A DNA stretch of 64,000 bases from the NCBI GenBank assembly GCA_963748625.1, contig CAVVJT010000007.1, positions 640,001 through 704,000 on the forward strand, in the 5' to 3' direction. Under the pieces are notes generated by a model. That model made no database searches, was not told the DNA's origin, and was given only the letters and a program-made list of their open reading frames with translations. A program made the position numbers and the translations under genes. Shown here piece by piece: positions 175 through 43,117 of this stretch. Position 1 is the stretch's first letter, and each line of letters starts with the position of its first letter. This stretch comes from an uncultured Chloroflexia bacterium. Lineage in GTDB: Bacteria; Chloroflexota; Limnocylindria; Limnocylindrales; CSP1-4.

Positions 175-780
175 TCAGTTCTGGATCGCGGCCAGTGCGC
201 GATCCATGTCGGAGCGACTCATCGCGCCGATCCGGACCTCGCGGACCGTGCCGTCGGCACCGATGAAGAAGTGCGTGGGGATCCCCATCGTGCGGTAGCC
301 CGCAGCGATGTCCGCGTTCTCGTCCACCAGGATCGGGAACGTCAGCCCCGCGCGGGACGCGTACCCGGCGATCGCGTCGGCCGGCTCGTTCATGAACACG
401 CCGACCACATCCACCTTGTCCTTGTTCGCGAGATACGCGGCCTCCACGTCCGGCGCCTCATTGCGGCAGTCCGGGCACCACGAGGCGCCGAACGTCAGCC
501 ACACCGGCCGTCCGGACGACAAGTAGGTCGAGAAATCAACAGGCTCACCGTCGTAGGTCACCCCGCGGAAGGACGGCGGAACCGTCCCGATCTTGGGGGC
601 ATTCGCGGCGGCGGCGGAACCCAGGTCCACCTCCGTGACCCCATCGGAGGAGGATGCGCCGCCCCCGATGAGGAAGGCGGCCAGCCCGATGACGCCCACG
701 GTGATCGCGATCACCACGATCGTCTGCAGCCGTCCGGCCGAACGGCCAGCCGGCCGCTCCGCCACATCCGCTGCACTCAT
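175..780 (-). CDS. resA: Membrane-anchored TlpA/ResA-family thiol-disulfide oxidoreductase
   Basis: N-terminal TM; FGASWCPDCRNEAP active site, GIPTHFFIG cis-Pro motif; adjacent to ccsA/resB/ccdA. Confidence 0.85.
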   Translation of the reverse strand: MSAADVAERPAGRSAGRLQTIVVIAITVGVIGLAAFLIGGGASSSDGVTEVDLGSAAAANAPKIGTVPPSFRGVTYDGEPVDFSTYLSSGRPVWLTFGASWCPDCRNEAPDVEAAYLANKDKVDVVGVFMNEPADAIAGYASRAGLTFPILVDENADIAAGYRTMGIPTHFFIGADGTVREVRIGAMSRSDMDRALAAIQN

Positions 781-810
781 AGACGAACTCCCTTCACACC
801 AGACCCGGGC

Positions 811-1881
811 TCAGCCCAGGCCGGAGTAGCTGTGGAGCCCGCCGAAGAACAGGTTCCCGAAGTAGGTGAACAGCGTGGCCACGAAGCCCAGGACCAGCAG
901 CCAGGCGGCGCGATCGCCGCGCCAGCCGCGCATCACGCGGGCGTGGAGGTAGGCGCCGTAGATGAACCAGGTCACCAGCGACGCGGTCTCCTTGGGATCC
1001 CAGCTCCAGTAGGTGCCCCACGCGGTGTCGGCCCAGACGGCGCCCAGGATGATCGTCAGGGTCAGGAACGGGAAGCCGATGACCACGGCGCGGTACCCGA
1101 TCTCGTCGAGCACCTGCGGCTTGGGCAGGCCCCAGCGGCCGCCATCGGAGTCGGAGAGCGAGGCGCCAACCCCGGACCAGCGGGCGATCCCGCCGATGAG
1201 ACCACCGACGACCGCGCCAAGCAGGAGGCCCGCGAGGAGCCCGGTGACCTGGCCCATGATCAGGCGCCGACGATCGCGCCCGGGACCGCGCCGATCAGCA
1301 TGCCCGCGGCCACCATCACCCACCGGCCCTGGAGCAGGAACAGCAGCGAGGCGGCGAACGCGATGGCGAAGGAGCCGTAGGCAACGATCGCGACCGCGAC
1401 GTGGACGGTGAGGAGCAGGTTGTTCTGGAGGGCGGGGACGAGCGGCTCGACGGTCGGCCGGAATGGTTGCCGCGTACAGCAGCATCGCCAGCGCGACCGG
1501 CAGGGCGATCAGGGCGAGGATGCGCTGGTGGTACTTGTGCTCGAACCAGGAGTACGTGACCAGGATGCCGAAGGCGAACGCCATCGAGAACTCGTACATG
1601 TTCGCGAACGGCCCGTGGCCGGTCACAACGGCCCGGAACACCATGCTGGCGCCCAGGAGGGCGGTGGCCAGCCACACGAAGATGGACGCGTACCGTCCTA
1701 GCTCGCCGGTGCGCGGGCCGGACATGAAGCCCACGGTGCCGCCGGCGCCTGAGCCAGGACCGCCCGCCGTCTGCATCCGCGCAGCGCGGACGCCGGAGAC
1801 GGCGTAGAAGATGTAGAGGACGAGCGCGAACGCCGTCATCAGGATTGACGCGATGAACGCGTACTCGGACATCTTTGCCAT
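811..1881 (-). CDS. ccsA: System II cytochrome c synthase CcsA/ResC, with two compensating frameshifts near 1260-1460
   Basis: WWD domain [41 protein letters not shown]-terminal GLHSY; the [13 protein letters not shown] segment lies in another frame. Confidence 0.9.
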
Positions 1882-1894
1882 GGTGGGGACTCCC

Positions 1895-3337
1895 TCAGCC
1901 GTTCGCCGGCGTTCGCAGCGCCGTGCGGATGTCGTTGACGATGCTTTCGAACTCGGTGCCCTGCGCCACATCCTTCTGGGTGAGGGTGGCCAGGGCCAGG
2001 ACGGCGCCGCCGTTCGGACGGCTGGTGATGCGGCCCCACACGCGCTTGTGCGGGAACATGAAGCGGATGGCAAAGCCTCCGAAGAGGAGGAACGAGCCCA
2101 GCCACACGAGGGTGACACCCGGGTCGCGCGCGACACTGAGCCGGGTGTACTGGGTCTCACGGTCGAATGTCACGTCGAAGCCCGCAAGACTGGCGGCCTT
2201 GCCCTGGTCGATGACCTCCTGGGCGATCGGCGCGTTGTCCTGCCCGTGCTGCCAGACCTGCACCTCCACCTGCCCCGGCTTGATGCGCGGGTCGCTGGAG
2301 CCGGTGGTGCCCAGGACCCAGAGCGTCTTGTCCGAGTCCGGCACGGACCAGATGGCGAGCTGGCGGTCGTCGGCAGACAAGGACCACTCGTAGGGCAGGC
2401 CCTCGGAGATGAGGACGGCTCCGTCCTCGCCCTTGATCGTCATCGCCGCCGCCGAGCCGAAGCCGGACTGGTAGAAGGTCGTGTCCTTGTAGCGCAGCGG
2501 GTCGTTGACCCGGATGACGTGCTCATCGATCTTCTGGCCGTCCTTGTACAGGACGACGGTGCTGGCGTAGTCGATCGGCTGGCCCGTGGTGGTGTCGTAC
2601 GAGTCCATGAAGTCCAGGACCTCGAGCGCGAGGCCCGCCTCCGCGCCCACGGCCCGGGTGCTGCCCTCGGCCACGGCGAAGCCGCTGTCGCGGTAGCCCC
2701 AGGTGCCGCCGATGATCGCGCCTGCCAGGATCAGGATGATCGAGACATGGGCGATGAGGCCGGCGAACGAGAGCCAGCGGTGCTTGTCCGCGTAGACGTG
2801 GACCGTCCCGTCGTCGGCGTCGAGCACCCGGTAGCCGCGCTTCTTGAGGACGCCCTGTGCGGCGGCGGTCGTCTCGCTCGCGGACTGGCGGGACACGATC
2901 GCCTCGTGCTGGGGCGCATGCTCGAAGAACGCTGCCCCCACGTCCACGCGCGGCTTGGTGGCGGTCCGCCACATGCCGGGCGTGCGATGGACGGAGCAGG
3001 CGATCAGGCTGATCGTCAGGAACGCGACCAGGCCGCGGAAGATCAGCGAGTTGAAGATGTTGAATGCGTCGACCGCCGCGAGCGGGTCCGTCCAGCCCCC
3101 GAATGTCGGGCGGATGCCGTCAAGCCAGTCCGCGCGCGAGGCCGGGTCGGCCCACACGGTGGACGGCGCCTGGATCACGAGCGAGCCGATCACGCCAAGC
3201 ACGGCGATCGCAAGCATCACGACCATGGCCACGCGCATCGAGCTCAGGAAGTGCCAGAGGCCTTCCAGCACGCCGTCAACGCGGTCCATGGCTGAGGGAG
3301 ACGCGGTTGCGGGCCGCGTTTCGACCTTCTGGGTCAT
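1895..3337 (-). CDS. resB: Cytochrome c biogenesis protein ResB/Ccs1
   Basis: [44 protein letters not shown] and SVARDPG motifs. Confidence 0.9.
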
Positions 3338-3348
3338 CGCCAGCCTCC

Positions 3349-4130
3349 TCAGATCCCGAACGGCGTGCCGAAGGTCGACAGCCGCCCGAGGGTGTTGGTG
3401 AACATCAGGACGCCGAGGATCACGAGCAGGGCGCCCGTGACCAGGTTGACGGCGTGGTTGTGGCGGCCGAACCAGCTCATCCGGCGGGCGACCCAGGAGG
3501 CGCCCATGGCGACCGCGATGAACGGGATGGCGAGGCCGGCGGCGTACGCGACCAGGAGCAGGGTGCCCTGGGCGAACGTCGCCGTGGCGGTGGCGATGCC
3601 GAGGATCCCGCCGAGGATGGGCCCGATGCACGGGCTCCAGCCGGCGGCGAACAGCAGGCCGAAGACGAAGGAACGGGGGTAGGCCGGAGTGCCGGGGCGG
3701 CTGGCGACGGCGCTCGATAGCGCCGCTGCCCGTGCCCGGGCCGCCGGCCATCACGAGGCCGCCGCCCATGGAGGGCATCACGCGGGTGTCGCGCCAGAGC
3801 GCGCGGACGTTGATGACGCCCGCGACCTGGAGGCCCATGAAGATCATCAGCGCGCCGATGATCATGTTCAGGTAGCGCCGGTCCACGAAGGCGCCGATCA
3901 CGCCCAGCAGGGCGTAGAAGGCGATGAACACGAGCGAGAAGCCCGCGCTGAACGCGAGGCCGTGGAAGAAGGCCGGGCGACGACCGGTGGTGCCCTCACC
4001 GGTCGCGCCCAGCATGTAGGAGACGTAGGCAGGAACGAGCGGCAGGCAGCAGGGGGATGCGAAGGACGCCAGCCCGCGCCAGGAAGGCGAGGCCGATGCC
4101 CAGCACGCTGCCGAGCTCGAGAGCGGTCAT
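3349..4130 (-). CDS. ccdA: Cytochrome c biogenesis protein CcdA (frameshifted)
   Basis: SFASPCCLPLVPAYVSY and FAAGWSPCIGPILGGIL motifs in different frames; stop at 3349-3351. Confidence 0.85.
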
Positions 4131-4133
4131 GGC

Positions 4134-5487
4134 TCAGGCTCCCACCGCGCGTGCGCCGGTCCTGGCGGGATTGACGTTCCCGGCCGGGCTGGCCGACGGG
4201 GCGGGGCTGGCCGAGGGCGCTGCCGACGGGGCCGCCGACGGGGCGCCGGAGGGCGCTGTCGACGGGGCAGCCGGAGCGCACAGGCATCATCGAGTTGCGT
4301 TGCCAGCGACTCCAGGTGGGACTTGGCCGTCTGGGCGAGGTCGGTCGTCGGGTCGATCTCGACGACCTGCTCCCACTCGCGCTGTGACGGCTGTCCAGTC
4401 CGGTTCGGCCTGGTTCAGGTAGAGGAACCCGAGGTCGTAGTGGACCTCCTGGTTGTCAGGGAACTTCGTCGGCGAACGCGGTCCACACCTTCTCGGCGTT
4501 CTCGACGTCACCAACGTTGAAGTAGACGGCGCCGCGCGCGAGGACGGCCCGCTCGTTGTCCGGCTCGATGGCGATGACCTTGTCCAGCCACGTGCCGGCC
4601 GTCTCGTACTCGCTCGACCGCGTAGTACTCGTTCGCGAGGGCGATGCAGCGTCTCCACGTCCTCGGGGTTCGCCTGGAGCTTGGTCATCAGCTCGGTGAT
4701 CCTCGCCGCGTCGACCGTCGGGGCGCTCGGCCTGCGCGGTGCGCCGTACCGGTGTTGCCCGAGGTGATCGGCGCTGCGGAGGACGAGCTGCCGAACAGGA
4801 AGTTGAAGCCCAGGAACCCGACCACCAGGACGCCGATGATGGAGAACGTGGCGATGTAGAGCCGCTTCCAGGGGTTCGTGGCGGTCGCAGCAGCCGGCGA
4901 CCGGCGCCGCCTTGGTGGCGGCTGGCCACCTTGCGCGCCTCGCGGCGATCCTTCTTGGTGGGCCGCTTGGCGTTGGGCGCCATGTCCGCGTGGGCGCTCG
5001 GCGTCACCGAGGCGTACAGCGCGGCCAGGTCCTCGGCGTCGGGCTCGCCCTCGATGGCGGCCGCGACGTCCTCGGGAGACTCGGCCTCGTCGGCCGGCTC
5101 CGCGACGCTCGTCAGCCTCGGTCGTCGGCGTCCACTGCAGCGGCATCCGCCACGGCAGCCGGGATCTCCTCGTCGAGGGAGATCCCGGCGGGCCGGAGGT
5201 GTCGCCGGCCCGCCGGGTACGACCACGGACGGACTCGTCGGGCTCCTGAGGGCCGAGCCCTCGAGACCGACCGGGTCGGTGAGTTTGAGGTACGCCGCGT
5301 CAAGCGCGGCGACCTGGGCGTGGGCCCATCCTCGCAGTTGCGGGGGTGCGGACGCGAGGTACTCGCTCGCGGCCTCGTGGAGGCGGTCCACGTCGTCGGG
5401 GGAAGCGCTGGCTGCCAGGCCGAGCTGGGCCAGCAGCTCGTTCTGGGCCTGCTCGGCCTCAGTGACCGGGACGCCGCGCGGGCTCAT
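4134..5487 (-). CDS. Membrane-anchored TPR protein (frameshifted), candidate apocytochrome chaperone
   Basis: Fragments give a helical N-terminal region, TM WKRLYIATFSIIGVLVVGFLGFNFLF, TPR-like LQANPEDVETL / VIAIEPDNERAVLARGAVYFN / PDNQEVHYDLGFLYL, and a Pro/Ser/Ala tail. Confidence 0.6.
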
Positions 5488-5687
5488 GCCGCGCTCCGGG
5501 CCCGGCGCGCGCGCGTGCTCACGCGCGCGGTCGTGCGAAACATGTTGATTGCCCTCAGCTATGTGCCGCGAGGGGCCGCGGCTTGACACCTGCTGAGATT
5601 GTCCGGGCACCAGGCGCTGCTCGCCCATGCGTAAGGCGGCACATTTCCGCGGGACCGTGACGGGCCAGAGGGTGGAGAAACGGACGC

Positions 5688-5716
5688 GGCCCCTGTATCC
5701 GCTCGATACAGGGGCC
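5688..5716 (-). terminator. Perfect 12-bp hairpin after the multiheme cytochrome genes
   Basis: GGCCCCTGTATC-CGCTC-GATACAGGGGCC, 28 bp downstream of the 5744 stop. Confidence 0.7.
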
Positions 5717-5743
5717 TCGAGAACCACGGTGCCGCGCGGTCGC

Positions 5744-8083
5744 CTAGTAGCGGAACGCCTGGTGGTCCTTGCCGTGGCACATCATCGTGCAGGTGCCCAG
5801 CGCCGTTGGCGTCTTCACGATGAACTGGAACCCCAGGCCGGGCGAGTCCACGACGTTGGGCGCGAAGTTGACGAGCCGCGGGTTGTCCGCCTGCCCGCCG
5901 ATGGCCAGGCTGCTGCCATGGATCCGGAAGTGGCACTCGGCGCACAGGGCGTTGCCCTGGCCGGCGCCGGCGACGTCGATGTCCCGGCCCCCGGACCCGC
6001 TGCCCCGGATGCCCGACATGTGCAGTCCGTGGTACCGGAAGTTGGAGTCCGCGCGGTTGGTGCGGCTCGTGTCGGTCATGGGCGGCTCTGTGTGGCAGAG
6101 GTAGCACTCGGCGAAGTTGCCGACCGCGTAGAGCGTGCCCGATGCCGATAGGACCCGGTCCTCGTACTTGCGGAGCAGGATCCCGCGGTTGGCCGATGCG
6201 TGGTTGTCGATCGACGCGTCCGCCGTGACCGCTGCGACCGTCGATGAACCGTGGCAGTTCTGGCAGCGGATCGTGGAGGTCGTCGTGAACGTCCACAACT
6301 TGTACGGCGATGTCCCGGCCAGGTTCGTGTTCATCTTCACGGTCTGGTTGGTGCCCGCAGCCTCGACCGGGTGGAACGAGGCGTTGGACGGGTTGAACTC
6401 AAGTGCCTTGTCGAGCGCCCAGCGGCTCGGGTGCGCCGGGTCCTGGGCGCGAAGGTCCGTGAACGCGGAGTGGCACTTGAAGCAGAGCTCGTACTCCTTG
6501 GCCGAGGTGAGGTTCCAGGTGTACGCCGGTGCCGTGTTCGCGGCCCCGTTGACGACCGAGACGCCGGAGGCACCCTTGAGAGCGCCGCTTGCGGACCACG
6601 CCGTGGCCTTGCCGTCAGGGCCCGCCGGCCCCATCACGGGCAGGGTCGAGTCAGCCAGGTGTGGCTGGTGGCAGTCTGAGCACTCGCTGTGCCGGTTCTC
6701 CACGCCCTCGAACTCGTTGGTGCGGTCGGACACGTGGTCCGATGCGACGGTTGCCGGGTGGCGGAAGAAGCTCGACGTCGCCGGGTCGTTGGCCGGGAAC
6801 GCCGGGTTGGTGAACTCGGCCTTCGTATTGGCATCCGCACCCGACCCGTCGTGACAGCTGAAGCACATCGTGGAGATCGGCGAGAACGTCGCCTTCTGCA
6901 GCATCGCGCCTTCGGCGGTGTGGGTCCGATGGCAGGACGCGCAGGCATCGCTCTCGAGGGAGGCCTCCGCAAGGTGCGGTGAGGAGAACGATCCGGCGAG
7001 GGGCCCGAGGTCCAGCGGGGTGAGCTGTTCGGCGGCCGCGGCGTGCCGGGTTGCCATCAGCTGCTCCGGCTTGGCGAGCGGGAAGGCGGGCTCCTCCGAC
7101 GGGGCGCCCTCGACCTCCTCGGCAGAACGCTGCCCGGGGGTGATGACCTGCTCCGGCTGCGGCTCCATCGTCAGCTGCGCGTCGATGCGATCGGTGACGG
7201 CCGCCTCGCCCAGGCCAAGCCGGAGGTTGAACTCCGCCAGCCACGGTGCCGCATCAGTGGCGCGCACACGGAACTCGATGTCCGTGTAGGAGTCGGCGGG
7301 GAGCTGGAGGTGCGGGGCAGGGTTCTCACCCGCGCTGATGAGTCCCTTGACCGGGTTGCCTGGGGTTTCCCCCACCGTCGCCCGCAGGTCCGCAGGCAGG
7401 ATGTCAGTTGTCCGGACCTCATACTCGCGACCCTTGTCCGATGCTGCGTAGAAGGGCACATCGGGCACCGGATTGACCTCGGGTACCGCGTCCCAGGCGG
7501 GGGCATCGGCGGCAGCGCTCCACAGGAGCTTGGGAGTGACCTGCTCGTCCGTCGCGCCGTCGTTCACCACCCGGAACCGGACCCGGTACACGACCGAGAA
7601 GGTCATGCCGGCCAGCGGCTCGTCCTCAGCGCCAGCGACAGCGAGGGCGCCGAGGTCGGTCTCGGTGTCAACCCACACGTGCTCGATGCGGACGCCCTTC
7701 TCGGGCGCCGGCGTCGCGGACGGCTCGGGGAGCGGCGTGGAGGACGGATCGGGGGTCGGGTCCGTCGACGGGCCAGGGGTCGGCTCCGGTCCGACAACCG
7801 GACTCGCGCTCGGGTCGGGCAGGGCCGAGGGGTCGGGCACAGCCGAGGGGTCGGGCACGGGCGTCGTGCCGGGCTGCTCGGAGGCAGCCGGTGCGGGCGT
7901 GGCGCCCGGGTCGAAGAACGGCTGTGCGGCGGGGTCAACAGGCGTGGCAGTGGGCTGCGGTTCAGGCGTCGGATCCAGGGCCGACGCCACCGGGATCGCC
8001 GGGGAGACCGTCGCCAGCAGGCCAGCCAGAACCAGCCACGCTCCGAGGAGCGGGCCGGCACGGCGGGTGATTGCTGACTTCAT
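5744..8083 (-). CDS. Secreted or anchored octaheme c-type cytochrome with Pro-rich linker
   Basis: Signal peptide, PDPSA-type repeats, a beta-rich domain, then CASCH, CFSCH, CSDCH, CFKCH, CQNCH, CYLCH, CAECH and terminal CTMMCH. Confidence 0.9.
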   Translation of the reverse strand: MKSAITRRAGPLLGAWLVLAGLLATVSPAIPVASALDPTPEPQPTATPVDPAAQPFFDPGATPAPAASEQPGTTPVPDPSAVPDPSALPDPSASPVVGPEPTPGPSTDPTPDPSSTPLPEPSATPAPEKGVRIEHVWVDTETDLGALAVAGAEDEPLAGMTFSVVYRVRFRVVNDGATDEQVTPKLLWSAAADAPAWDAVPEVNPVPDVPFYAASDKGREYEVRTTDILPADLRATVGETPGNPVKGLISAGENPAPHLQLPADSYTDIEFRVRATDAAPWLAEFNLRLGLGEAAVTDRIDAQLTMEPQPEQVITPGQRSAEEVEGAPSEEPAFPLAKPEQLMATRHAAAAEQLTPLDLGPLAGSFSSPHLAEASLESDACASCHRTHTAEGAMLQKATFSPISTMCFSCHDGSGADANTKAEFTNPAFPANDPATSSFFRHPATVASDHVSDRTNEFEGVENRHSECSDCHQPHLADSTLPVMGPAGPDGKATAWSASGALKGASGVSVVNGAANTAPAYTWNLTSAKEYELCFKCHSAFTDLRAQDPAHPSRWALDKALEFNPSNASFHPVEAAGTNQTVKMNTNLAGTSPYKLWTFTTTSTIRCQNCHGSSTVAAVTADASIDNHASANRGILLRKYEDRVLSASGTLYAVGNFAECYLCHTEPPMTDTSRTNRADSNFRYHGLHMSGIRGSGSGGRDIDVAGAGQGNALCAECHFRIHGSSLAIGGQADNPRLVNFAPNVVDSPGLGFQFIVKTPTALGTCTMMCHGKDHQAFRY

Positions 8084-8131
8084 GAGGCGGGACGTCCTCT
8101 CGGTTGTGATTGGTGGGGTTGCGTGGATGAG

Positions 8132-9394
8132 TTACGGGTTCCTGAAGTTCCCGGTGTACGGGATGGTGTTCGTCGGGTCGTGGCAGGCCTGGCAGGTGCC
8201 ACGGTTGTCGATCTTGAGCAGGCGGCTGTTGAGGTACGTGGTGGTCGGGCCGGTGCCGACGGTCGTCGGTGCGGACCCGTCCGGGTAGTCCATCGCCCCC
8301 GAGTTGCCGATCATCGTGGCGTTGCTGCCGTGCGAGACGTGGCACTGGGTGCAGGCGACGGTCTGAGTGAGGTGACGGTACGTGTAGATGGAGTCGCCAC
8401 TCGGTGTCGTGATGTCGGACGACGTCGCGTGGTACCGGCTATGGCACGTGGAGCACCAGGCCTCGATCTCGACGTTGAAGGTGACGAGATTGTCCGGGGC
8501 GCCGACCACGTACATCGGGATGTCGCCCGGGACGCCGGTGCCAGCCTCGTCCTCGAAGCCGTTCCAGGTCGGTACGCCGTCCCAGGGCAGCCACTTGCGC
8601 CAGTAATCGCCGGCCGTGGGGCCGAGCGCGGCGGTGACCACGTCCTGGAGGGTACGACCGTTCTGGACGGTGTAGTTGCGCGTGCCTGCGGCGCCGCTCC
8701 CGCTCGGGAGCTCCGCGTCATTGACCGTCGCCCCCGGCTCGCCGACGCGCACGAAGTCAGCGCCGTCAGCCTCGGGGCGGGGGTTCAGGATCCGGTACTG
8801 GCCGTTGCCATGCGGGTTGTGGCACGTGCCGCAGCTGATCGTCGCGGTGGGTCCGGCGCCGCTGTCGATCGCGCCGTTGCCCCAGACAACATCGCGGGCC
8901 ACCACGCCACCGGCACCATCGACATCGAGGTGCGCGGACGTGACGGGGGCGCCATCGACGAGGGCAGGGACCAGCATGGAGAAGCTGGTGCGGAACTCGG
9001 TGGGGGCGAGGAACGGGTAGGAGATGCGCGAGGGGTTGGCGGAGTCGATGCGTGCATCCACAAAGCCGCCGGCCCGCAGAGCACCGGCGATCACTCCGGT
9101 GTCGCGTTCGCCGGTCGCGAGGCCGTATTGGATGCCGCTCTGGACATCAGTCGTGGCGCCTGTGCTTGACGCGCCGTGGCAGGTGAAGCAGAGCTCCTCC
9201 TCCGTCGCGGTCTTGAGCAGTTTCGCCCCTTGGGCGGTGTGCGTCCGATGGCAGCCGGCACAGCTGTCCGCAGTCAGCGACGAGAGGCCGTTGTTGCTGC
9301 CGGCAACGTGAGGGCCGCCGTCCGCAAGGACGGGGAACGCGGCGAGGAACAGCCACAGCGTGCCGGCTGCCATCAGCAGCGTCAGCTTCTTCAC
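8132..9394 (-). CDS. Hexaheme c-type cytochrome, OmcS-like (paralog B, intact)
   Basis: AGGAGG 8 nt before GTG 9394; signal peptide; CAGCH, CFTCH, CGTCH, CSTCH, CTQCH, CQACH in about 420 aa. Confidence 0.85.
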   Translation of the reverse strand: MKKLTLLMAAGTLWLFLAAFPVLADGGPHVAGSNNGLSSLTADSCAGCHRTHTAQGAKLLKTATEEELCFTCHGASSTGATTDVQSGIQYGLATGERDTGVIAGALRAGGFVDARIDSANPSRISYPFLAPTEFRTSFSMLVPALVDGAPVTSAHLDVDGAGGVVARDVVWGNGAIDSGAGPTATISCGTCHNPHGNGQYRILNPRPEADGADFVRVGEPGATVNDAELPSGSGAAGTRNYTVQNGRTLQDVVTAALGPTAGDYWRKWLPWDGVPTWNGFEDEAGTGVPGDIPMYVVGAPDNLVTFNVEIEAWCSTCHSRYHATSSDITTPSGDSIYTYRHLTQTVACTQCHVSHGSNATMIGNSGAMDYPDGSAPTTVGTGPTTTYLNSRLLKIDNRGTCQACHDPTNTIPYTGNFRNP

Positions 9395-9456
9395 TGTCCT
9401 CACCTCCTTTCCTTCGGGTTGGACGCAGGGGTTGGCGTGTGGTGTTGAGTCGGGGT

Positions 9457-9490
9457 GAGCCCGGTGGCGCCGGAGGCGACCACCGGGCTC
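9457..9490 (-). terminator. Strong intergenic stem-loop between the two hexaheme genes
   Basis: GAGCCCGGTGG...CCACCGGGCTC 11-bp stem with inner CGCC/GGCG; no U-tract. Confidence 0.55.
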
Positions 9491-9505
9491 TTCAGTATCG
9501 GGGTG

Positions 9506-11766
9506 TTACGGGGTCGCCGGCATGATGCCGACGGACCCGCCCGTGCCAGCCAGCGATGATGTCGACGTCGGCGCCGGAAGAGTCGTGGAGGTACCGTGAA
9601 GTCGTGGCTCAAGGATGCGACCTGACGATGACTGGCGGTTGGCGGTGCCAGTCGACTCTGGTGATACCAGCGATGTTGACCTGGTCGCCGACCGCGAGGC
9701 CGTGAGCACGCCGACGTGAAGTACGTCGGTGGTCGGCAGTCCACGCCGAGGCGAGTGCGACCTTCTGGAACGGAGCACGACCGGGAACTGGTCGCCAGCG
9801 ACCGTCGTGCCCGTGGGCTCGTGGCACTGCTGGCAGGTTCCGCGGTTGTCGATCTTCAGCAGCCGGCTGTTGCCGACCGCATCTGGTCCCATCCGGGAAG
9901 GTGAAGTTGGCGCTGTACTCGCCGGTCATCTGCGGCATTGGAGCCGTGCGAGACGTGGCAGGTGAGGCAGCCGCGACCGGAGCTCGCACCGCGAGTGCGG
10001 TGCTGGTACGAGAAGATCGCGTCGCCGGGGCGCGGGTTGCTGTAAGCCGGGCCGGTGGCGGTGCCGTCGGTCGGATCCTCGGTCGGCTCGGACCAGGCGT
10101 AGTAGCGGCTGTGGCACGAGGTGCACCACGCTGCCATCTGCTCGCCGAAGCCGCCGGTGAACTGCAGGCGGTGCCGCCGCCGGGGATGGCCGTTCGGTGC
10201 GTCGTAGGTTCGACGCGCCGCTGGGCCGTGTTCCACGGCACGCGGTAGTGGAAGTAGTCGCCGTCGGTCGGGTCGAACGCGGCCGCCTCGCAGGCGAGGA
10301 GGACGTCGTTCTGGCGACGGCTGCGCACCGCCGATGGCGTCGGTTGCGGAGGACACGCCGGCGAGCGTGAAGGTCGTCGTCGTTGCGGTGGCGACCTTGA
10401 CGGTGGTGTTCGAGCTGCACGGCGCTCGTGGAGCCACCAACGGTCATCCCGGTGACGTTGACCGTGTCACCGACCGCGAAACCGTGGGCGGCGGCGGTCG
10501 TGTAGACAAAGGTCGTTCCGACTGTAGCTGACCACGACGGCCCAGGACTTGGGTCCTGGATGACGGTGTAGTTGCGGGCATCGCGCAGCCGGCGAGGGCC
10601 GCAGCGTCGGTGACCCGAACGCCACCGTTGCGGATCGACCTTGCCACCGAGACGGTGGTGCCATCGGTGACGCCGGTAATCGTGAAGGTCAGGTCGGACG
10701 GAACGGTGGCAACCGCGCCCGTGACGTTGGCCGCACCCAGCGCGTTGCCGCGTGACGGTGACGTTGTCGCCGATCAGCAGGCCGTGGCTGGCCACAGTCG
10801 TGTAGACCTTGTTGGAGTAGCTGAGCGAGGGCGACGCCCTGCGGCAGCACGGTGCCGCCGGTGCCGGTGCCGGCAGCCAGCTTGAAGGAGACGACCGGAG
10901 TGACCCGCCGGCAGGCTCGTCTTGGCGGTGAACTCGGTCGTGGGAGACGATCGTGTCGATCCACAGCGTCCGGTTGGCGGCCGTGGTGGAGTTACCGGCT
11001 ACCACGATCTGGTTGTTGACCGCCAGATCGTGGTTGGCGCCGGTGGTGAACAGCGCTGCGGCGTTGGCGGTAGCGGTGCCATAACCGATCACGCTGGTGA
11101 GCGCGGTCGTCGGGTACTGGCCGCCACCCCACGTGGCGTCAATGCCAGTAGCGCCGGGGATGGTGTTCAGGATGCGGTACTGCCCGTTCCCGTGCGGGTT
11201 GTGGCAGGAGCCGCAGGAGACGTCGGCAGCCGGGCCGGCACCGGAGCCGTTGGCCCCGTTGCCCCAGGCGATGCCGGGCTGCGTCAGGCCGGCAAGGCCG
11301 GGCATGTGCGCAGAGGTGACCGCCTCGAGACGGTGCGAGACGGTGACCTTGCCGTAGCGCGAGCTGTTGCCCGTCGCGCTGGTCTGGAGTGAGAACGGAA
11401 GGGATCGCCGATGCGGGCCTCTTCGAAGCCGCCGCCGCGGAGGGCGCCCAGGTCGGCCGTGCCGCTGCGCGGTTCTTCAGCGATCGTCGGAGGGCTCGTA
11501 CTGGACGCCCATGACGACGTCCGTGGTTGCGCCCGTCAGGCCGCACCGTGGCACGCGAGGCACAGGTCCTCTTCCGTGGTCTGGTTCAGCAGCAAGGGGC
11601 CCTTGGCGGTATGGACCCGGTGGCAGCCGGCGCAACTATCGGCCGTCAGCGACGTGACGCCGTTGTTGATCGACGACGTGTGGGGTCCACCATCCGCGAA
11701 CGCAGGAACCGCGGCAAGGAACAGCCAAAGTGTGCCGGCTGCGATCAGCAGCGTCAGCTTCTTCAC
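9506..11766 (-). CDS. Hexaheme c-type cytochrome, OmcS-like (paralog A) with four inserted beta-modules; multiple frameshifts
   Basis: ORF fragments reassemble as CAGCH, CLACH, CGSCH, CTSCH, CLTCH, CQQCH, colinear with paralog B (shared DGGPH, CHNPHGNGQYRILN, CHVSHGSNA, NSRLLKIDNRGTCQ). Confidence 0.8.
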
Positions 11767-11879
11767 TGTCCAAGCCTCCTTTCTGTAACTAACTACGTGC
11801 GTGTTGATTGACGTGGGCCGCCAATGGGGCGGCGGCTAGTTGGTCGGAAACACCTCCTGCTACTCCCTCTCATCTACCT

Positions 11880-12946
11880 CTAGTAGCTCCACAACTGGAC
11901 GCGGTCGTTGCCGGTGTCGGCCACATAGACCCTCCCTCTCGCATCGACAGCGACCCCGTTGGGGTATTGGAACGTCCCGTTGTCGGCGCCCCTGGCCCCC
12001 GAAGGAGCCAAGGAATTTGAGCTCCACGGGACCCGACGTCGAGATCTCGTAGACGAACACCCCGTGACCGGTGGAGTCGCCGACGTAGACGCGGTTCTGG
12101 CCGTCGATGGCGACGCCACGCGGGAGGCCGAGGTTGCCCTCACCCGACCCGCGGCCGATGCTCGCCACAACGCTGTTGTCGGCCCCGAACACCAGCAGGC
12201 GGCCGTTGCTGCTGTCCGCGACGACGACGTTGCCGTTGGCATCGACGGCGACGCCGTTCGGAAAGTTGAGGCCCTCGGTCTCGCCCATCGTGCGCAGGAC
12301 GGCGCCGCTGCGGTCGAAGACGACCACGCGCTGCGCCGGGCCGCCGACGTCGGTCACGTACAGGTTGCCGGTCTTGTCGAACGCGAGGGCCAGCGGCTGC
12401 CAGCCCTAGAATCGTCCTCGCCAGGGTCGAATGTCCGGGCGTAGGTGCCGTTGGCGTCGTACACGTGGATGGCGCCCGCCGGACGGTCTGTCACGTAGAC
12501 CTCGCCAGCCAGCGGATCGACGGCTAGGTACACCGGCACGTGGTCCACATCCGGGTTGGGCGCTGCCATGACGGCGAGCTCGTTGCCGCTGGCGTCGAAC
12601 ACGCGCGCGATCCGGTCACCGCCTGTCTCGCCGACGTAGATGCGGCTGCCGTCCGCCGTGACCGCGACGCCGACGGGGTGCATTCGCGCCGTACATGGAC
12701 GTCACGTAGCCAGGCATGACGACCTGGCCGGGGAGTGTCGGCAGCGGGCACGGGCTGGCGGAAAAGCAGGTACCAGATGGCGAGTCCGAGCAGCATGGCG
12801 AGGGCTGCCAGCAGGACGAGCAGGAGCACGACCTTGCGGCGGCGGGACTTGCCTTCGCCGGTGCCATCGAGGGGCTGGCTGTCGGTGCCCTCGGGGGCCT
12901 CAGCCCCTTCGGGGATGGCGGTGGGGACGGCGGGGGACGCAGTCAT
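11880..12946 (-). CDS. Membrane-anchored NHL-repeat beta-propeller protein (frameshifted)
   Basis: TM after RRRK; repeats PVGVAVTADG.RIYV, FPNGVAVDANGNVVVADSSN, LPRGVAIDGQNRVYVGDS, YPNGVAVDARGRVYVADTGNDRVQ; TGATG overlap with the upstream gene. Confidence 0.85.
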
Positions 12947-13943
12947 CAGTTGGATCCTTCGCTCGGGGACGCGGCCGGGGAGGCCGAGGGCTTGACCGGG
13001 ACGGTGACCCGGCTCAGGCCGAACTTGGCGGTGTCGTCCTCGGGATCGATGGCGAGCGCCTTGCGGTACCAGTCGGCGGCGGCGGCGGTGTCGCCGGTCG
13101 TCTCGGCGATCAGGCCCAGGCCGACGAACGCCTCGATGGCATGCTCGCCGCCGGTGATTGCCTTGAGCCGCTGCTCCGCGGTGGGGATGTCGCCGCTGTT
13201 GAACGCGGCCATGGCGCCTGCCCACTCGGCGAGCTCGGCATCTCCGGTCGCCTTGTAGGCGGTCTCCGAGGAGCGCGTACGGCTCAGCCCAGCCGGCCGG
13301 CACCAGTGCGATCGCCTTACGCAGGATCTCGACGGCCTCGGGGGCGCGATCCGTCGCAAGGTATGCCTTCGCAATCGCATACATCGCATCAGCGTTGGTG
13401 CGCTCGATCTCGAGGGCCCGCCCAAGCTGGTCGATAGCCTCGTCGTTGTTTCCCTGGGCCAGGGCGATCTCACCGCGGCCGAAGTAGGCGGCCGCAAGCG
13501 TGCGGTCCACGTTCGCCATCTCACCGCCTGCAGCGAACTCGACCACGGCGTCGTAGTCCTTGATCGCGTCGTCGTACCGCTCCATCGCCTGGTAGACGCG
13601 GGCGCGGCCCAAGGCTCGCGAGCTCGACCTCCTGGTCGGCATCGATCAGCAGCGTGTACTGGACGATGGCGTCCTCGTAGCGGCCCTTGGCGGCGTACGT
13701 GTCGGCGAGCAGGCCGCGGGCGGCGATGTTCTCAGGCTCTGCGCGGACCTTCTCCTCCATCGCGACGAGCTGCTGGTCAACGATCTCAGCAGTCGGCATG
13801 CGGAAGCGGTCGATGACGTAGAACGCCACGAAGGCGATGAGGACAACAACAAAGAGGAGCGCGATCCGCTTGATCCAGCGGTTCAGCTGCTCCTCAGGCA
13901 TGTTGGTCAGGGACGTGACCCGGGACATGAATGGCACCTTCAC
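12946..13943 (-). CDS. Membrane-anchored multi-TPR protein (two frameshifts)
   Basis: N-terminal TM, then TPRs such as ARGLLADTYAAKGRYEDAI, AYFGRGEIALAQGNNDEAI, AFVGLGLIAE...WYRKALAIDP. Confidence 0.8.
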
Positions 13944-14333
13944 TCCATGGTCGGCGGATTCGGACGGACCGACCTATGGCAATGCTCGCGGGCGCGACGC
14001 TTCGTTTGCATCCGTCGGGGGATAGAACTGCGATATACGCCGGTGCCTGGGTGCACCAGTTCGTCTATACCCTTTGGCCCATTGGAGCCGCGCTCGCGCG
14101 TGCGCACGCGAGCGAGGGCGTCACCAGGCGGGCAGGTCTAGGTCAGGCCGCACCTCAGTTCGCCGGGTTAGCGAAGCCTTTCCTGTTTGGCAGACGACCC
14201 GCGCTGGAACACGGCCACCGGCTGGCTCATCGTGTCGGTCACCGACACCACGCCGCCGGCTGTCTCGATCACGGGTGCCTTGGCCTCCTAAGGACTCGAT
14301 TCGGCCGCGTCGAGCACGGCGACTGCTGAGGAC

Positions 14334-14750
14334 GTGGTCGACGGCGGCCTCGTGCCCGCGTGCACGCTGGCGCGTGACGGCGGTTCGGCGGAGGCGGTGG
14401 ACTGCACTATGGGCGGCTTCGGCTGGGAGCTCGGCCCGGGTGCGTTCGTGTTCGCGGCGAGCGCGTCGGATGCCGCGGGCAACGGTCCTGTTGTTGAAGC
14501 CGTGTCGTTCTCGGTGGCGGCCACGTACCCGTCGATGGTCAATCTCACCCGCCAGTGGGTCACCAAGCCGGGCGTGGCCAAGGACCTCGTCGGGCTCCTC
14601 AACGGGGCGGCGACGGCCGAGGCCCGCAACCAGCTCCAGGACGAGGCCAGCAAGCTCGCCCAGTACCGGGCCCTGCTGGCGGCCCAGTCCGGCAAGGGGG
14701 TCCCGCCGGACAAGGCAGTACTGCTGTCGATGTTCTCCATGGGGCTCTGA
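14334..14750 (+). pseudogene. Probable C-terminal remnant of a secreted Ig-like/FIMAH-type protein
   Basis: ASASDAAGN beta motif followed by a short helical tail; no signal peptide or clear RBS. Confidence 0.35.
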
Positions 14751-14834
14751 GCTCCCGCTGATCGCACGCCGCGCCTCACCACATTGGGCAACGTGCCGGA
14801 TCGGGGGGCGATCGTGAAGGGAGGCGCTCGTGCG

Positions 14835-14864
14835 TTGACTTCAGATGTTGTTCTGAACTACGAT
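14835..14864 (+). promoter_or_regulatory. Sigma70-type promoter with palindromic operator; probably leaderless TA transcript
   Basis: TTGACT-18bp-TACGAT; spacer holds TTCAGA-N6-TCTGAA; ATG at 14871 with no SD. Confidence 0.6.
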
Positions 14865-14870
14865 GCCCAC

Positions 14871-15338
14871 ATGACCGCAGCGAACGCCATCCCCTCGACC
14901 ACCTGGAGCTCGTTCCAGCGCGATGCCAAGCGCGTGGCGGACCAGGCCGCAGAGTCCGACATCCTGCTTGAGCGGCGCGATGGACCGGATCTCGTGATCG
15001 GGACGGCGGAACGGCGCGAGGAGCTCGTCGAGAGTGTCACGGTGCTCACCCGTCTGCTGTCCGCCGTGATCCGCGATGTCGAGATGCTCCGCAGGGTCTC
15101 GGATCCGTCGGTGCTGCCCTGGCTCGCGTTCCTCCCCGACCGGGATCGGGAGACGTTTGCCGCCGAGTTCGTCTCGACGACCGCAGCTGCGATCGAGCTG
15201 GGGACGCTGGCCCCTGTCACCGTGCTGCTCCACGAGTGGAAGAACACGGCCCTCGTGCACGCCGATCCGAGGCTTGCCGCCGCGATGCGCCGGGATCACC
15301 CGGGCGCGGGCGAGGCTGTCCCCCGCCCCGGCGGCTGA
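14871..15338 (+). CDS. Putative Phd/YefM-like antitoxin
   Basis: N-terminal WSSFQRDAKRVA...ILLERRDGPDLVI Phd-like pattern; directly upstream of a RelE-like gene. Confidence 0.6.
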   Translation: MTAANAIPSTTWSSFQRDAKRVADQAAESDILLERRDGPDLVIGTAERREELVESVTVLTRLLSAVIRDVEMLRRVSDPSVLPWLAFLPDRDRETFAAEFVSTTAAAIELGTLAPVTVLLHEWKNTALVHADPRLAAAMRRDHPGAGEAVPRPGG

Positions 15339-15346
15339 CGAACCCC

Positions 15347-15712
15347 ATGGCAGGCAGGCGCGGAGGACGGGTTCCACCGCCACCGCCTCCGGGCGGCTGG
15401 ACCCTGCGCTTTGACGGGAACGCGCCGGCGGAGGGCTGGGAGCAGCTCGTCGGCCAGTTCCCCGGTCCGACCCGGAAGGCGTTCGAGCAACTCGAGAAAG
15501 AGCCGATTGCTCGCTCAGAGCGGCAGCACCGGCTTCGGGGCAGCGAGAGCACGACCACCGTGGGCGGCACGCCGCTCGAGCAGTGGCAGTACGAGCTCAC
15601 CGGTGGCGCCCGCATCCTGTACGCGATCGACCCGGAGAGCCGGACAGTCTGGATCCTCGAGGCGTCGCCGGGACACCCGAAACACACGGAGCGGGTGAAG
15701 GGGAAGCGGTAG
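15347..15712 (+). CDS. Putative RelE/ParE-fold toxin
   Basis: 121 aa; HRLRG...QWQYELTGGARILYAIDPESRTVWI...GHP pattern. Confidence 0.6.
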   Translation: MAGRRGGRVPPPPPPGGWTLRFDGNAPAEGWEQLVGQFPGPTRKAFEQLEKEPIARSERQHRLRGSESTTTVGGTPLEQWQYELTGGARILYAIDPESRTVWILEASPGHPKHTERVKGKR

Positions 15713-15859
15713 GACCACAACAGGACGGCCCCGTGGTGCGAGTCCCCCACGTAGGGCAGAGTGCGCGACCTGACACGGGCTCCCCCTCCGGCAAATGCAC
15801 ATCTGTATTTTTCGGATCGCCTAATTGACTTGTGCGCCTGCCCGTCGCATGCTGGTCCC

Positions 15860-16747
15860 ATGCGCTCGACCGATAGCCTGGAACCGGCCCTCGCTGACGC
15901 CGCCGCCGCCGCCTGGATTGCGTTGGGTGCCCAGCTGGAGGGGCTGCCGATGCATGCTGTCGTTGACCTCGAGGGTCTCGTCGTGGCGACGGCCCGGCTG
16001 GGTGATCGTGCCGATGCGCGCACGCGCGGCGTGGCCCTCGACTGGTGCGTCCGCTTCGGTTCAGTGATCAGTGGCAACCGCCTGATGCGCGTAGCAGAGG
16101 AGGCGCTGGCGATTGACCAGACCGCCTCCTTCGCAGCCACCGTCGCGGCGTCAGGCGGTCCGGCGTGGCCGATCGCGGTGCGTGGCCAGCCGTCGGCATC
16201 CGAGATCCGGGATCGCGTCCGTGTGGCGGACCTCGTCTCCACGAGTCGCCTTGCGTGGCGGCTGCGCGCGGCGTTCGGGGCGGTGTCCCGCGCCGACATC
16301 CTCCTCGCGGTCCTGCTTTCCCCGGTCCCACTCACGGTCGCCGAGATCGCGCGCCGGGCCCGCTACACAAAGGGAGCGGTCGCGGCCGCGATCCCGGGCC
16401 TCGCCCTGGCGGGGCTGATCGAAGTCGTGCGCGTCGGACACGAGGACCGCGTCTCGCTCGCGCCCGACTCGGTGGTCGCCGCCTGGCGGCCATCGCCCGC
16501 ACTGCCATACATCGATTGGGTGGCCCGGTGGAAGGTCGGGCTCGAGGTGCTCGACTGCCTCGCGGCAACACGCGATCTCGGCACCGCCGCTGCCGCCGTG
16601 CAGCGGCGGGCCTCGGTGTCGGCATTGCAGGCGGACATCCACGCCTCGGCGCTGCCTCGTGTTGACACGAAAGTGCTCGGGGAGGCGTTCGCGATCGAGT
16701 ACGAGCGCTGGGCAGAGGCCATCGCTGCCGACTTCGTGCCCGTGTAG
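15860..16747 (+). CDS. Hypothetical protein with central winged HTH
   Basis: RADILLAVLL...LTVAEIARRARYTKGAVAAAIPGLALAGLI. Confidence 0.55.
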   Translation: MRSTDSLEPALADAAAAAWIALGAQLEGLPMHAVVDLEGLVVATARLGDRADARTRGVALDWCVRFGSVISGNRLMRVAEEALAIDQTASFAATVAASGGPAWPIAVRGQPSASEIRDRVRVADLVSTSRLAWRLRAAFGAVSRADILLAVLLSPVPLTVAEIARRARYTKGAVAAAIPGLALAGLIEVVRVGHEDRVSLAPDSVVAAWRPSPALPYIDWVARWKVGLEVLDCLAATRDLGTAAAAVQRRASVSALQADIHASALPRVDTKVLGEAFAIEYERWAEAIAADFVPV

Positions 16748-16758
16748 TCCGGGGCCCG

Positions 16759-16870
16759 TGATGCGCCTGTGACTCACCCGCGGGGCTAGCGAGCGTGACC
16801 GCGTCGCGAAACCCGACCTTCGCGTCGTGATCGTGCAGGGCCGGGCTGGATCTGATGCGGCGGTGACTCA
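16759..16870 (-). repeat. Repeat family A, solo copy
   Basis: Boxes TGATGCGCCTGTGACTCA (16759) and TGATGCGGCGGTGACTCA (16853), 94 bp apart; core CGCGAAACCCGACCTTCGCG; reverse complement aligns with 21161-21272. Confidence 0.85.
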
Positions 16871-16984
16871 GGCGGGTGGCGGATCAGCCGAGAGGCGGCA
16901 GCAGCGGGGCGCGGGGACACTTCGAGCCGGTCGGCAGTTGGCGCTCGGTCGGTCCGCCGATACGGTCGGGCGCGGAGGTGGCGG

Positions 16985-17656
16985 ATGCTGGCTGTGGTCA
17001 TCGTCGCGGGGCTGGTGGCGGCCGTCGGGTTCGTCGTGATCGCGGCAGGCGGCGTCATCCCCGTGCTCGGTGATCCGATGGCCGCGTGGCGGGAGCCGGC
17101 ATCGTCTCTGGTGCTCCCGGCGCTGCTCCTGCTTGTGAGCACCGGGTTGCTGGTCGTCGGGGGGCTCGGCCGGGTCCGTCGGCGGGGTGCCAGCGGACGG
17201 CGCCAGGCGGTGGTGATCGGGGCCGTCGCGATCTGGCTCGCGGTCGGTGTCGGCGGTCTGGTGGTCCTGGGCCGCGATCTCGTGCTGCCCGGCACCGCGC
17301 GCGTCGAGGGCCTCCCGGGGCAGGCCGAGCCATGGTCGGGCCCGATGGTGTGCCGGCGCTACCGGTGGGGATCGTTCGAGAGCACGGGTCGGTCGGCCGA
17401 AGTCCAAGTGCCGGCATCGGCCACGGGGGGTGAGGTGACGTTCGCCCTGGTGCTGGCCGGCGTGGACGGGGACAACCCGAGCCTCATCGCCGGTGACGCG
17501 AGGTGGGGGTGGTCGACGGGATCCAGCATGTCGATGGCATCGGCGGACATCAGCGACGACGGTCTGCGGGGCACGATCCTCACGCTGCCCACCCCGATCC
17601 TCCACCGGGACGCCGCTCCGTCGATGGTCTCGTTGACCTGGGACTGCCTCGGGTAG
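16985..17656 (+). CDS. Hypothetical membrane protein (3 TM plus C-terminal extracytoplasmic domain)
   Basis: Three hydrophobic segments; C-terminus ends LTWDC, like the LTWEC end of 30231-30959. Confidence 0.5.
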   Translation: MLAVVIVAGLVAAVGFVVIAAGGVIPVLGDPMAAWREPASSLVLPALLLLVSTGLLVVGGLGRVRRRGASGRRQAVVIGAVAIWLAVGVGGLVVLGRDLVLPGTARVEGLPGQAEPWSGPMVCRRYRWGSFESTGRSAEVQVPASATGGEVTFALVLAGVDGDNPSLIAGDARWGWSTGSSMSMASADISDDGLRGTILTLPTPILHRDAAPSMVSLTWDCLG

Positions 17657-17692
17657 CGGTAGGACGACCGGCGCGGTGCGGCAGTGCAGCGC

Positions 17693-17749
17693 GCCCCGCC
17701 TGTGGGGCGAATCCGGACCGCGGCCGCACGGCCTGCGCGCCAAACCCCG
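17693..17749 (+). repeat. Repeat family B, left half (interrupted by IS30)
   Basis: GCCCCGCCTGTGGGGCGAAT...GCCAAACCCCG matches 19876-19932. Confidence 0.85.
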
Positions 17750-43088: not shown

Positions 43089-43117
43089 GCGGCCCCGAGC
43101 GACACGGAGAGACGACG

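Follow-up and report, generated by a model that had tools for sequence, protein, structure and literature searches.

The 64,000-nucleotide window analyzed here (G000:C7:640001-704000, where G000 is the source genome, assembly GCA_963748625.1, and C7 its contig CAVVJT010000007.1) carries near its start the local copy of an operon-like module of 11–12 genes that is strictly conserved in the class Limnocylindria (Chloroflexota). The module joins one or two six-heme c-type cytochromes (hexahemes), homologous over hemes 1–4 to the cytochrome OmcS of Geobacter sulfurreducens, to an eight-heme cytochrome (octaheme), NHL-repeat and TPR proteins, and an extra copy of the System II genes for cytochrome c maturation. 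We lean toward viewing it as an extracytoplasmic or extracellular electron-transfer conduit of a monoderm cell.

Ten gene types lie on the minus strand between window positions 175 and 13943, in the order TPR protein, NHL propeller, hexaheme A, hexaheme B, octaheme, second TPR protein, CcdA, ResB, CcsA, ResA. This co-oriented run had been proposed in an earlier reading of the letters alone (the sequence-only reading), and was recovered by open reading frames (ORFs), Pfam matches and tblastn with the unbroken orthologs of G022, a genome of the same genus (locus L093), which served as the reference and were themselves run against Pfam. The 20 heme-binding motifs counted in that reading are exactly the number found on the minus strand by a six-frame motif scan, with six in hexaheme A, six in hexaheme B and eight in the octaheme. 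Its three exported multiheme proteins are correct as to gene types and sites; as assembled, however, hexaheme A is frame-broken and only hexaheme B and the octaheme are intact. Five other genes are broken as well, and intact ORFs cover four of the ten genes (ResA, ResB, octaheme, hexaheme B).

Relation of the hexahemes to OmcS

Hexaheme B (8132–9403), a member of the OmcS superfamily that is predicted to be exported, is intact at 423 residues and has six CXXCH motifs in one frame (8180–9262), all of them invariant or at least 90% conserved among 87 homologs. It looks secreted and, as read from its sequence, has neither a lipobox nor a C-terminal anchor. Searched against the PDB, a hexaheme profile built from 48 sequences (A1) found OmcS (6ef8_A, 6nef) as its top match at E 0.0033, and a more diverse profile of 35 sequences (A2) matched OmcS 6ef8_A at E 6.8e-7 (31.9 bits). 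The A2 alignment sets profile positions 172–303 on OmcS 130–249, from heme 3 through heme 4, with a weaker collinear segment over hemes 1 and 2. MtrA was the second-best match (1.2e-4), followed by OmcE (2.5e-3, over the paired-motif segment). The octaheme provided a negative control: its profile from the same genomes (A3) did not match OmcS at E values up to 10, and the OmcS match is therefore not a mere reflection of heme-motif richness.

Profile A1 was also searched against 301 genomes of a Desulfobacterota-type phylum (that of genome G041), 79 of which matched, mostly over the paired CXXCH segment alone. Nine places were followed (L108 and eight further regions). Hexahemes of 420–445 residues were found at L108, L133, L134, L139 and L140, that of L108 immediately following an NHL propeller gene, and the remaining places, with 9 to 16 hemes, were dropped. 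An alignment of these Desulfobacterota-phylum hexahemes (A5) bridges the two families, matching A2 over 245 columns (hhalign probability 99.6%, E 9e-24) and OmcS in a single alignment over OmcS 8–360 (E 7.3e-9); the L140 protein matches OmcS directly at E 1.7e-5. Judged by these profile comparisons, the hexaheme family is a distant relative of OmcS over hemes 1–4. The two also share the presence of six CXXCH motifs in about 400 mature residues, an aligned heme-1 CXXCHxxH motif, an adjoining NHL-repeat gene and, in the lineage of the window, tandem hexaheme paralogs; in G. sulfurreducens, omcT is the tandem neighbor of omcS.

The family is large, with at least 1,102 proteins at E ≤ 1e-5 among 8,000 candidates scored; among representatives at 50% identity, 1,912 matched at E ≤ 0.001, 978 at ≤ 1e-10 and 388 at ≤ 1e-30. 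Most of its members are Chloroflexota and Actinomycetota proteins from soils and sediments, and they bear only generic database names such as "CXXCH cytochrome" and "cytochrome c3 family." Likewise, hexaheme B retrieved from the ESM Atlas only generic "paired CXXCH / cytochrome c3" clusters, from several phyla.

Hexaheme A (9785–11770) is a larger paralog with about nine frameshifts, its six CXXCH motifs (9821–11634) being split over two frames. Orthologs measure about 630–700 residues, the intact G022 ortholog has six CXXCH, and the N-terminus resembles that of hexaheme B. Repeats are inserted between hemes 3 and 4 and between hemes 4 and 5 in the A-type paralogs (9785–11770 in the window, L093:13080-14960, and L100); they show a recurring His-Gly...Gly-Asp-x-Val-x-Val motif without a Pfam match. 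The enlarged form also occurs on contigs titled Actinomycetota, including L100, which is titled Ilumatobacteraceae.

Other arrangements of the hexaheme core were seen on contigs titled Dehalococcoidia (L072-L080, L084), where it forms part of longer fusion proteins (13 hemes in L072) and is present in several copies on each contig; the octaheme and System II are absent nearby. On a contig titled Nitrospirae (L090), an ORF at 1930-7581 encodes 1,884 residues with 41 CXXCH motifs, in repeated modules that resemble heme 3–6 portions of the hexaheme family.

The module across genomes and the host envelope

A scan of species-representative genomes yielded 78 loci, nearly all of them titled Chloroflexota or Limnocylindrales, with a few titled Actinomycetota, Dehalococcoidia or other. 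Synteny was counted by tblastn with the G022 proteins in 42 loci that measure 20 kb or more and had all been chosen for their hexaheme, and the 36 loci shorter than 20 kb were excluded from the counts. Across the 42 loci the order Rieske-TPR-NHL-hexaheme(1–2)-octaheme-TPR-CcdA-ResB-CcsA-ResA-NapC is constant and on one strand, and the 36 short loci keep it wherever they carry the genes. The NHL gene was found in 40 of the 42, directly upstream of the hexahemes as it is here, the first TPR gene in 39, the octaheme in 37 and the second TPR gene in 34; the maturation genes were found in 29 (CcdA), 34 (ResB), 36 (CcsA) and 34 (ResA), and the flanking NapC-like and Rieske genes in 31 and 34, respectively. 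The Rieske [2Fe-2S] ortholog (PF00355, 1.2e-10) precedes the first TPR gene in relatives. Tandem hexahemes characterize the lineage of the window (with G011 and G022), and most other relatives have a single one. Of 24 genomes of the same genus, 18 have hexaheme B homologs; of 16 genomes of a small-genome (1.1-Mb) sister family, none does.

The host, a soil member of the Limnocylindria (Chloroflexota) and not Geobacter, is represented by a metagenome-assembled genome of 4.63 Mb in 10 contigs, 98.3% complete and 7.74% contaminated, with approximately 70% G+C. LpxC was not found in this genome at its 98.3% completeness, nor did a genome-wide Omp85 search find a BamA-type protein. The sole Omp85-family match was a ShlB/FhaC-type two-partner-secretion transporter (L132:7274-8884; POTRA_2 72.8 bits, ShlB 92.1 bits), whose gene lies outside the window, at 1–3 kb from the C7 contig end and 690 kb from the cluster. 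Because ShlB is found in none of 40 relatives and the gene lies near the contig end, we treated it as foreign or as part of a chimeric contig end. A diderm host was rejected on these grounds. The host thus appears, from its gene inventory, to be of monoderm type, without outer-membrane markers, and to our knowledge the envelope of the class Limnocylindria has never been imaged. The same monoderm inference has been drawn for other Chloroflexi in an earlier report (PMC7399161).

A candidate electron path and its alternatives

In the path that we propose, in which the localization of the proteins, the direction of electron flow, the partners and the monomeric or polymeric state of the hexaheme are all predictions, c-type cytochromes would link the membrane quinone pool with the exterior of a cell lacking an outer membrane. 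Electrons would be exchanged with menaquinol by a NapC/NirT-like decaheme, anchored by an N-terminal membrane helix and encoded just past ResA. This gene, also on the minus strand, extends the module beyond the start of the window, from +130 (its 5′ end occupying 1–130) to about −1587, and shows 10 CXXCH motifs over three frames, with two frameshifts. Its G022 ortholog matches PF03264 (Cytochrom_NNT) above cutoff at 1.6e-11, with NCBIfam matches to NrfH, TorC and NapC below their cutoffs; none of the cluster proteins reached a curated NCBIfam family.

From there electrons would pass to the secreted hexaheme or hexahemes and to the octaheme (5744–8083), an intact, predicted exported protein of 779 residues with seven CXXCH motifs and one CX3CH between 5774 and 6943. 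The CX3CH site is unusual and conserved, and the family counts at least 974 members. Behind a signal-like N-terminus, the octaheme has a Pro/Thr/Ser-rich linker of about 100 residues, a middle domain of no recognized fold and a C-terminal heme domain. Pfam matches were to Paired_CXXCH_1 (1.1e-13) and to MtrC/MtrF domain II/IV (6.2e-8). Profile A3 had one notable PDB match, to OmcE (7tfs, 2.8e-4), which covers the paired-motif segment only and gave no fold assignment; a single-sequence PDB search returned no informative structural relative, and for the middle domain the ESM Atlas gave only unnamed, phage-labeled clusters (0.91). The Pro/Thr/Ser-rich stretch would be typical of wall-spanning linkers, and such a stalk could carry the heme domain across the wall.

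Holding or assembling the hexaheme at the membrane surface would fall to the NHL propeller (11860–12943; 4 frameshifts; NHL 1.8e-14) and the first TPR protein (12946–13943; 2 frameshifts; TPR matches), which opens the gene run. Each intact G022 ortholog of the two has a single hydrophobic N-terminal helix, and both are predicted to be membrane-anchored with their repeat domains outside. The NHL ortholog matches NHL at 3e-25 along with 6-bladed propeller families.

Maturation of the 20 to 36 hemes would depend on the cluster's own System II set, whose four parts are all present and adjacent. ResA (175–780) is an intact, ResA/TlpA-like thiol-disulfide oxidoreductase of 201 residues with a predicted N-terminal membrane anchor (AhpC-TSA 7.8e-19, Redoxin 3.4e-16), and ResB (CcsB; 1895–3337, with its ATG at 3337) is intact at 480 residues (PF05140, 5e-70). 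The other two are frame-broken here. CcsA (ResC; 811–1899), the heme-handling component, has two frameshifts, near 1452 and 1147, gives a PF01578 match of 120.7 bits at C7:640832-641125 and is 80% identical to its G022 ortholog (PF01578, 1.6e-46) along the frameshift-corrected path. CcdA (3349–4194), a DsbD-type transmembrane reductant carrier, has three, near 4134, 4076 and 3718, with 69% identity to its ortholog (PF02683 DsbD_TM, 4.6e-13). Since another intact CcsA (C10:933208) and another ResB (C7:845253) lie elsewhere in the genome, the set in the cluster is an extra, dedicated one. The second TPR protein (4255–5487), traced by tblastn and frameshift-aware alignment through about 10 frameshifts, is predicted to carry its TPR domain outside the membrane, behind a cytoplasmic N-terminal stretch and a single transmembrane helix. 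Its G022 ortholog matches TPR_11/17/19, PF23914 (TPR_CcmH_CycH) at 31.1 bits against a cutoff of 42, and NrfG at 3.4e-4, likewise below cutoff; we tentatively regard it as a CcmI/CycH/NrfG-like apocytochrome chaperone. The four System II parts are those of the textbook Bacillus subtilis-type CcdA-ResA-ResB-ResC/CcsA system, which differs in that the set here is a second, cluster-embedded copy accompanied by a TPR protein of a kind normally tied to System I or Nrf.

Several observations weigh against this conduit. Single-sequence PDB searches with hexaheme B and the octaheme retrieved no OmcS, OmcE or OmcZ, only weak matches to MtrA (6r2q_A) and to low-complexity circumsporozoite sequences, and identity to OmcS is thus undetectable at that level. 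The homology ends after heme 4: hemes 5 and 6 have no aligned counterpart in OmcS, the C-terminal third of the hexaheme is diverged, and the spacing of hemes 4 and 5 is 34 residues here vs. approximately 90–100 in A5 and OmcS. A Foldseek search with the better of two AlphaFold2 models of hexaheme B had no match at E ≤ 0.001, and the 50 matches listed include no cytochrome, coil-rich proteins being hard for Foldseek. The roles proposed for the NHL and TPR proteins and for the octaheme are guesses based on context, with family matches that are generic or below cutoff.

The sequence-only reading had taken the locus for an OmcS-type filament with its assembly kit. That interpretation is supported in part, by profile homology over hemes 1–4, an NHL neighbor, a complete maturation set additional to the CcsA and ResB encoded elsewhere, a conserved gene order in relatives, an apparently monoderm host that is not a member of the Desulfobacterota, and the lack of a beta-barrel porin gene in the cluster, every gene of which is assigned to another family. 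Evidence of polymerization and a structural match to OmcS did not emerge. In its strict form the proposal is that hexaheme B and/or A polymerizes head-to-tail into a conductive heme filament, with NHL and TPR proteins as a membrane base that replaces the outer-membrane parts of Geobacter, and we consider this rather doubtful. OmcS is a proven filament subunit, the hexaheme is secreted-looking and anchor-free, and His55 of hexaheme B (≥90% conserved), within the first-heme CXXCHxxH, aligns in domain 1 of the A2 match with the His at position 16 of OmcS, which we take to be the inter-subunit heme ligand. The CXXCHxxH motif is common in cytochromes that form no filament, MtrA among them, many relatives of OmcS are not known to polymerize, and the OmcS region around hemes 5–6, which forms the subunit interface, is the very part left unaligned. 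That the filaments of OmcS and OmcE use a His donated to the heme by the adjacent subunit is described in PMC9473688. Beta-propeller genes stand beside both omcS and omcE; for the NHL-repeat gene GSU2505, which adjoins omcS, a role in OmcS assembly or expression has been suggested (PMC9070056).

A first AlphaFold2 model of hexaheme B (48 sequences) reached a predicted local distance difference test (pLDDT) of 61.4 and produced only Foldseek noise. The second, modeled with hemes absent, reached a pLDDT of 86.4, the value of the model used in the search above; its mature part is coil-rich, with approximately 13% helix and 11% strand, and OmcS is coil-rich too. A complex prediction of two mature hexaheme B chains with four hemes gave a median of 0.38 against a mark of 0.42 and was counted neither way.

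The setting differs from that of OmcS, the closest known protein, as well: a Chloroflexota host without outer-membrane markers, NHL and TPR partners on N-terminal transmembrane helices, and a System II set and NapC-like gene of its own. Alike in layout are the OmcE clusters of Desulfuromonadia, which, as described in bioRxiv 10.1101/2025.10.22.684050, always have two beta-propeller lipoproteins and further cytochromes and adjoin resB/ccsB, with TPR proteins in extended clusters. The shared plan is thus a nanowire-type cytochrome with more multihemes and propellers beside resB/ccsB; those clusters differ, in the same description, in always having a large outer-membrane beta-barrel and in their propellers being lipoproteins, whereas no barrel occurs here. 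OmcE is moreover a tetraheme, in contrast to the OmcS-like hexaheme of the module, which reaches OmcE only through the paired-motif segment.

Among monoderms, the available text of PMC7829351 proposes for the Gram-positive Thermincola and Carboxydothermus (OcwA and others) a relay of several secreted or wall-associated multihemes that crosses the wall porin-free; NHL/TPR partners or a dedicated System II are not described in that text, and OcwA was absent from all of our PDB search results, with no sequence relation detected. Multihemes are co-expressed with NHL propellers in Desulfovibrio ferrophilus, where the propellers are proposed to stabilize the cytochrome complex (PMC5815863); that system sits at the outer membrane of a diderm and uses other cytochrome families. 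From the Mtr/Pcc porin-cytochrome conduit the cluster differs in having no outer-membrane beta-barrel gene.

We judge it distinctly unlikely that the same hardware works instead inward or on soluble substrates, as an extracytoplasmic oxidase or reductase (for example Fe(II)/Mn(II) oxidation, humic or chelate reduction, N or S oxyanions) and not as a mineral-respiring conduit. A Rieske gene ahead of the module in 34 of 42 loci would suit such a role, as would the service of NapC/NirT-type proteins to many soluble-substrate reductases, the odd conserved CX3CH of the octaheme and the isolate name of one relative, "MnB_4 Mn-Chloroflexi-1." However, the motif scan of the coding strand found no catalytic-type motif such as CXXCK, up to E values of 10 the octaheme profile matched none of the octaheme enzymes that act on nitrite, tetrathionate or hydroxylamine, and the conserved module holds no substrate-specific partner gene.

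Most of what is known about cytochrome nanowires, and about OmcS, concerns Desulfobacterota that have an outer membrane. The hexahemes form a large, uncharacterized branch of the OmcS superfamily within a conserved module of a common soil and aquifer class. If electrons do cross the monoderm wall by this module, whether through a relay or a filament, uncultured soil bacteria would gain a route to minerals, humics and partner cells, and a porin-free design would become available for comparison with the Geobacter systems. A bolder possibility, to which we give limited credence, is that the hexaheme is a nanowire subunit of bacteria without an outer membrane, assembled on membrane-anchored NHL/TPR bases and receiving its electrons from a NapC-like quinol dehydrogenase. 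Were this true, the approximately 1,900 clusters at 50% identity would make heme nanowires common in abundant soil monoderms and no specialty of Geobacter-like diderms. A full-text literature search found no paper on the module or on OmcS homologs in Limnocylindria, though supplementary tables could list some; the nearest report is of a 28%-identical OmcS homolog in a Coriobacteriales metagenome-assembled genome (PMC7399161).

Frame breaks in the local copy

Frameshift-aware protein-to-DNA alignment of the window with the G022 orthologs placed 2 frameshifts in the first TPR gene, 4 in the NHL gene, 9 in hexaheme A, 10 in the second TPR gene, 3 in CcdA and 2 in CcsA, a total of 30; the 2 in the adjacent NapC-like gene bring this to 32 over seven genes. 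Hexaheme B, the octaheme, ResB and ResA have none. No corrected path contains an in-frame stop, identity to the orthologs along the corrected frames is 50–80%, and 26 of the 32 frameshifts are of the +1 class. The same module shows no frame breaks in the five sister genomes examined.

We think that the frameshifts are probably consensus errors of the assembly and not decay, since indel-only, insertion-biased damage without nonsense codons fits mixed-strain long-read consensus error better than neutral decay, and the usual bias in bacterial pseudogenes is deletional. Mixed strains are suggested by the bin itself, which is 7.74% contaminated and the largest of its genus sample, and similar patches strike unrelated genes elsewhere in it. 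rpoB (an open frame of 1185 residues) and three class-I tRNA synthetases are intact.

The alternative, that the locus is a decaying relic in which the frameshifts are real and only hexaheme B, the octaheme, ResB and ResA remain open, strikes us as rather improbable on account of the missing stops, the insertion bias and the retained ortholog identity. It draws on the very uneven spread of the damage (none in 5.7 kb of intact genes vs. 32 in about 8.7 kb), on clean neighboring genes and on the sequence context. Simple homopolymer error was rejected as the cause, the longest run averaging 2.6 at frameshift sites vs. 2.8 at 5,000 random sites. The locus also stands out from its genome. A codon-usage Viterbi gene finder, trained on the source genome and used to count frameshift-like junctions, gave 788 genome-wide, with a median of 3 and a 95th percentile of 11 per 25-kb bin; the bin with the locus had 18, tied for second of 192 bins, and the other 50 kb of the window was almost clean. 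The further CcsA and ResB elsewhere in the genome are in keeping with a relic, too.

Local rearrangement points the same way. tblastn of the G022 orthologs did not find the upstream Rieske gene at this locus; the flank at 13943–17800 has small genes (DUF6247, MarR-like) where relatives have it, and at a distance of 4 kb from the cluster there is an intact IS30-like transposase (17814–18992, plus strand; HTH_38 1.2e-20, rve 8.8e-12). With the Rieske gene missing and a transposase this close, the local copy of the module has been rearranged. As far as this copy is concerned, the rearrangement, the uneven spread and the non-homopolymer sites join the points against a working conduit, and given the latter two it may really be inactivated.

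A further TPR-NHL-hexaheme triad, paralogous to the first, occupies −4265 to −7475, just before the window start (in L097, G000:C7:620001-640000), and is likewise spread over several frames; the six CXXCH motifs of its hexaheme, at −6644 to −7458, fall in three frames. Dense patches of frame switches, 3–10 kb long between clean genes, were also seen at C4:680063-685964, C10:336387-340455 and C7:414445-421511, and in the window at 43085–44473. They have the look of uneven consensus quality in a bin of mixed strains. Fragments read in three such patches come from ordinary genes (ABC ATPase, branched-chain amino acid permease, LuxR/TPR regulator, MFS transporter).

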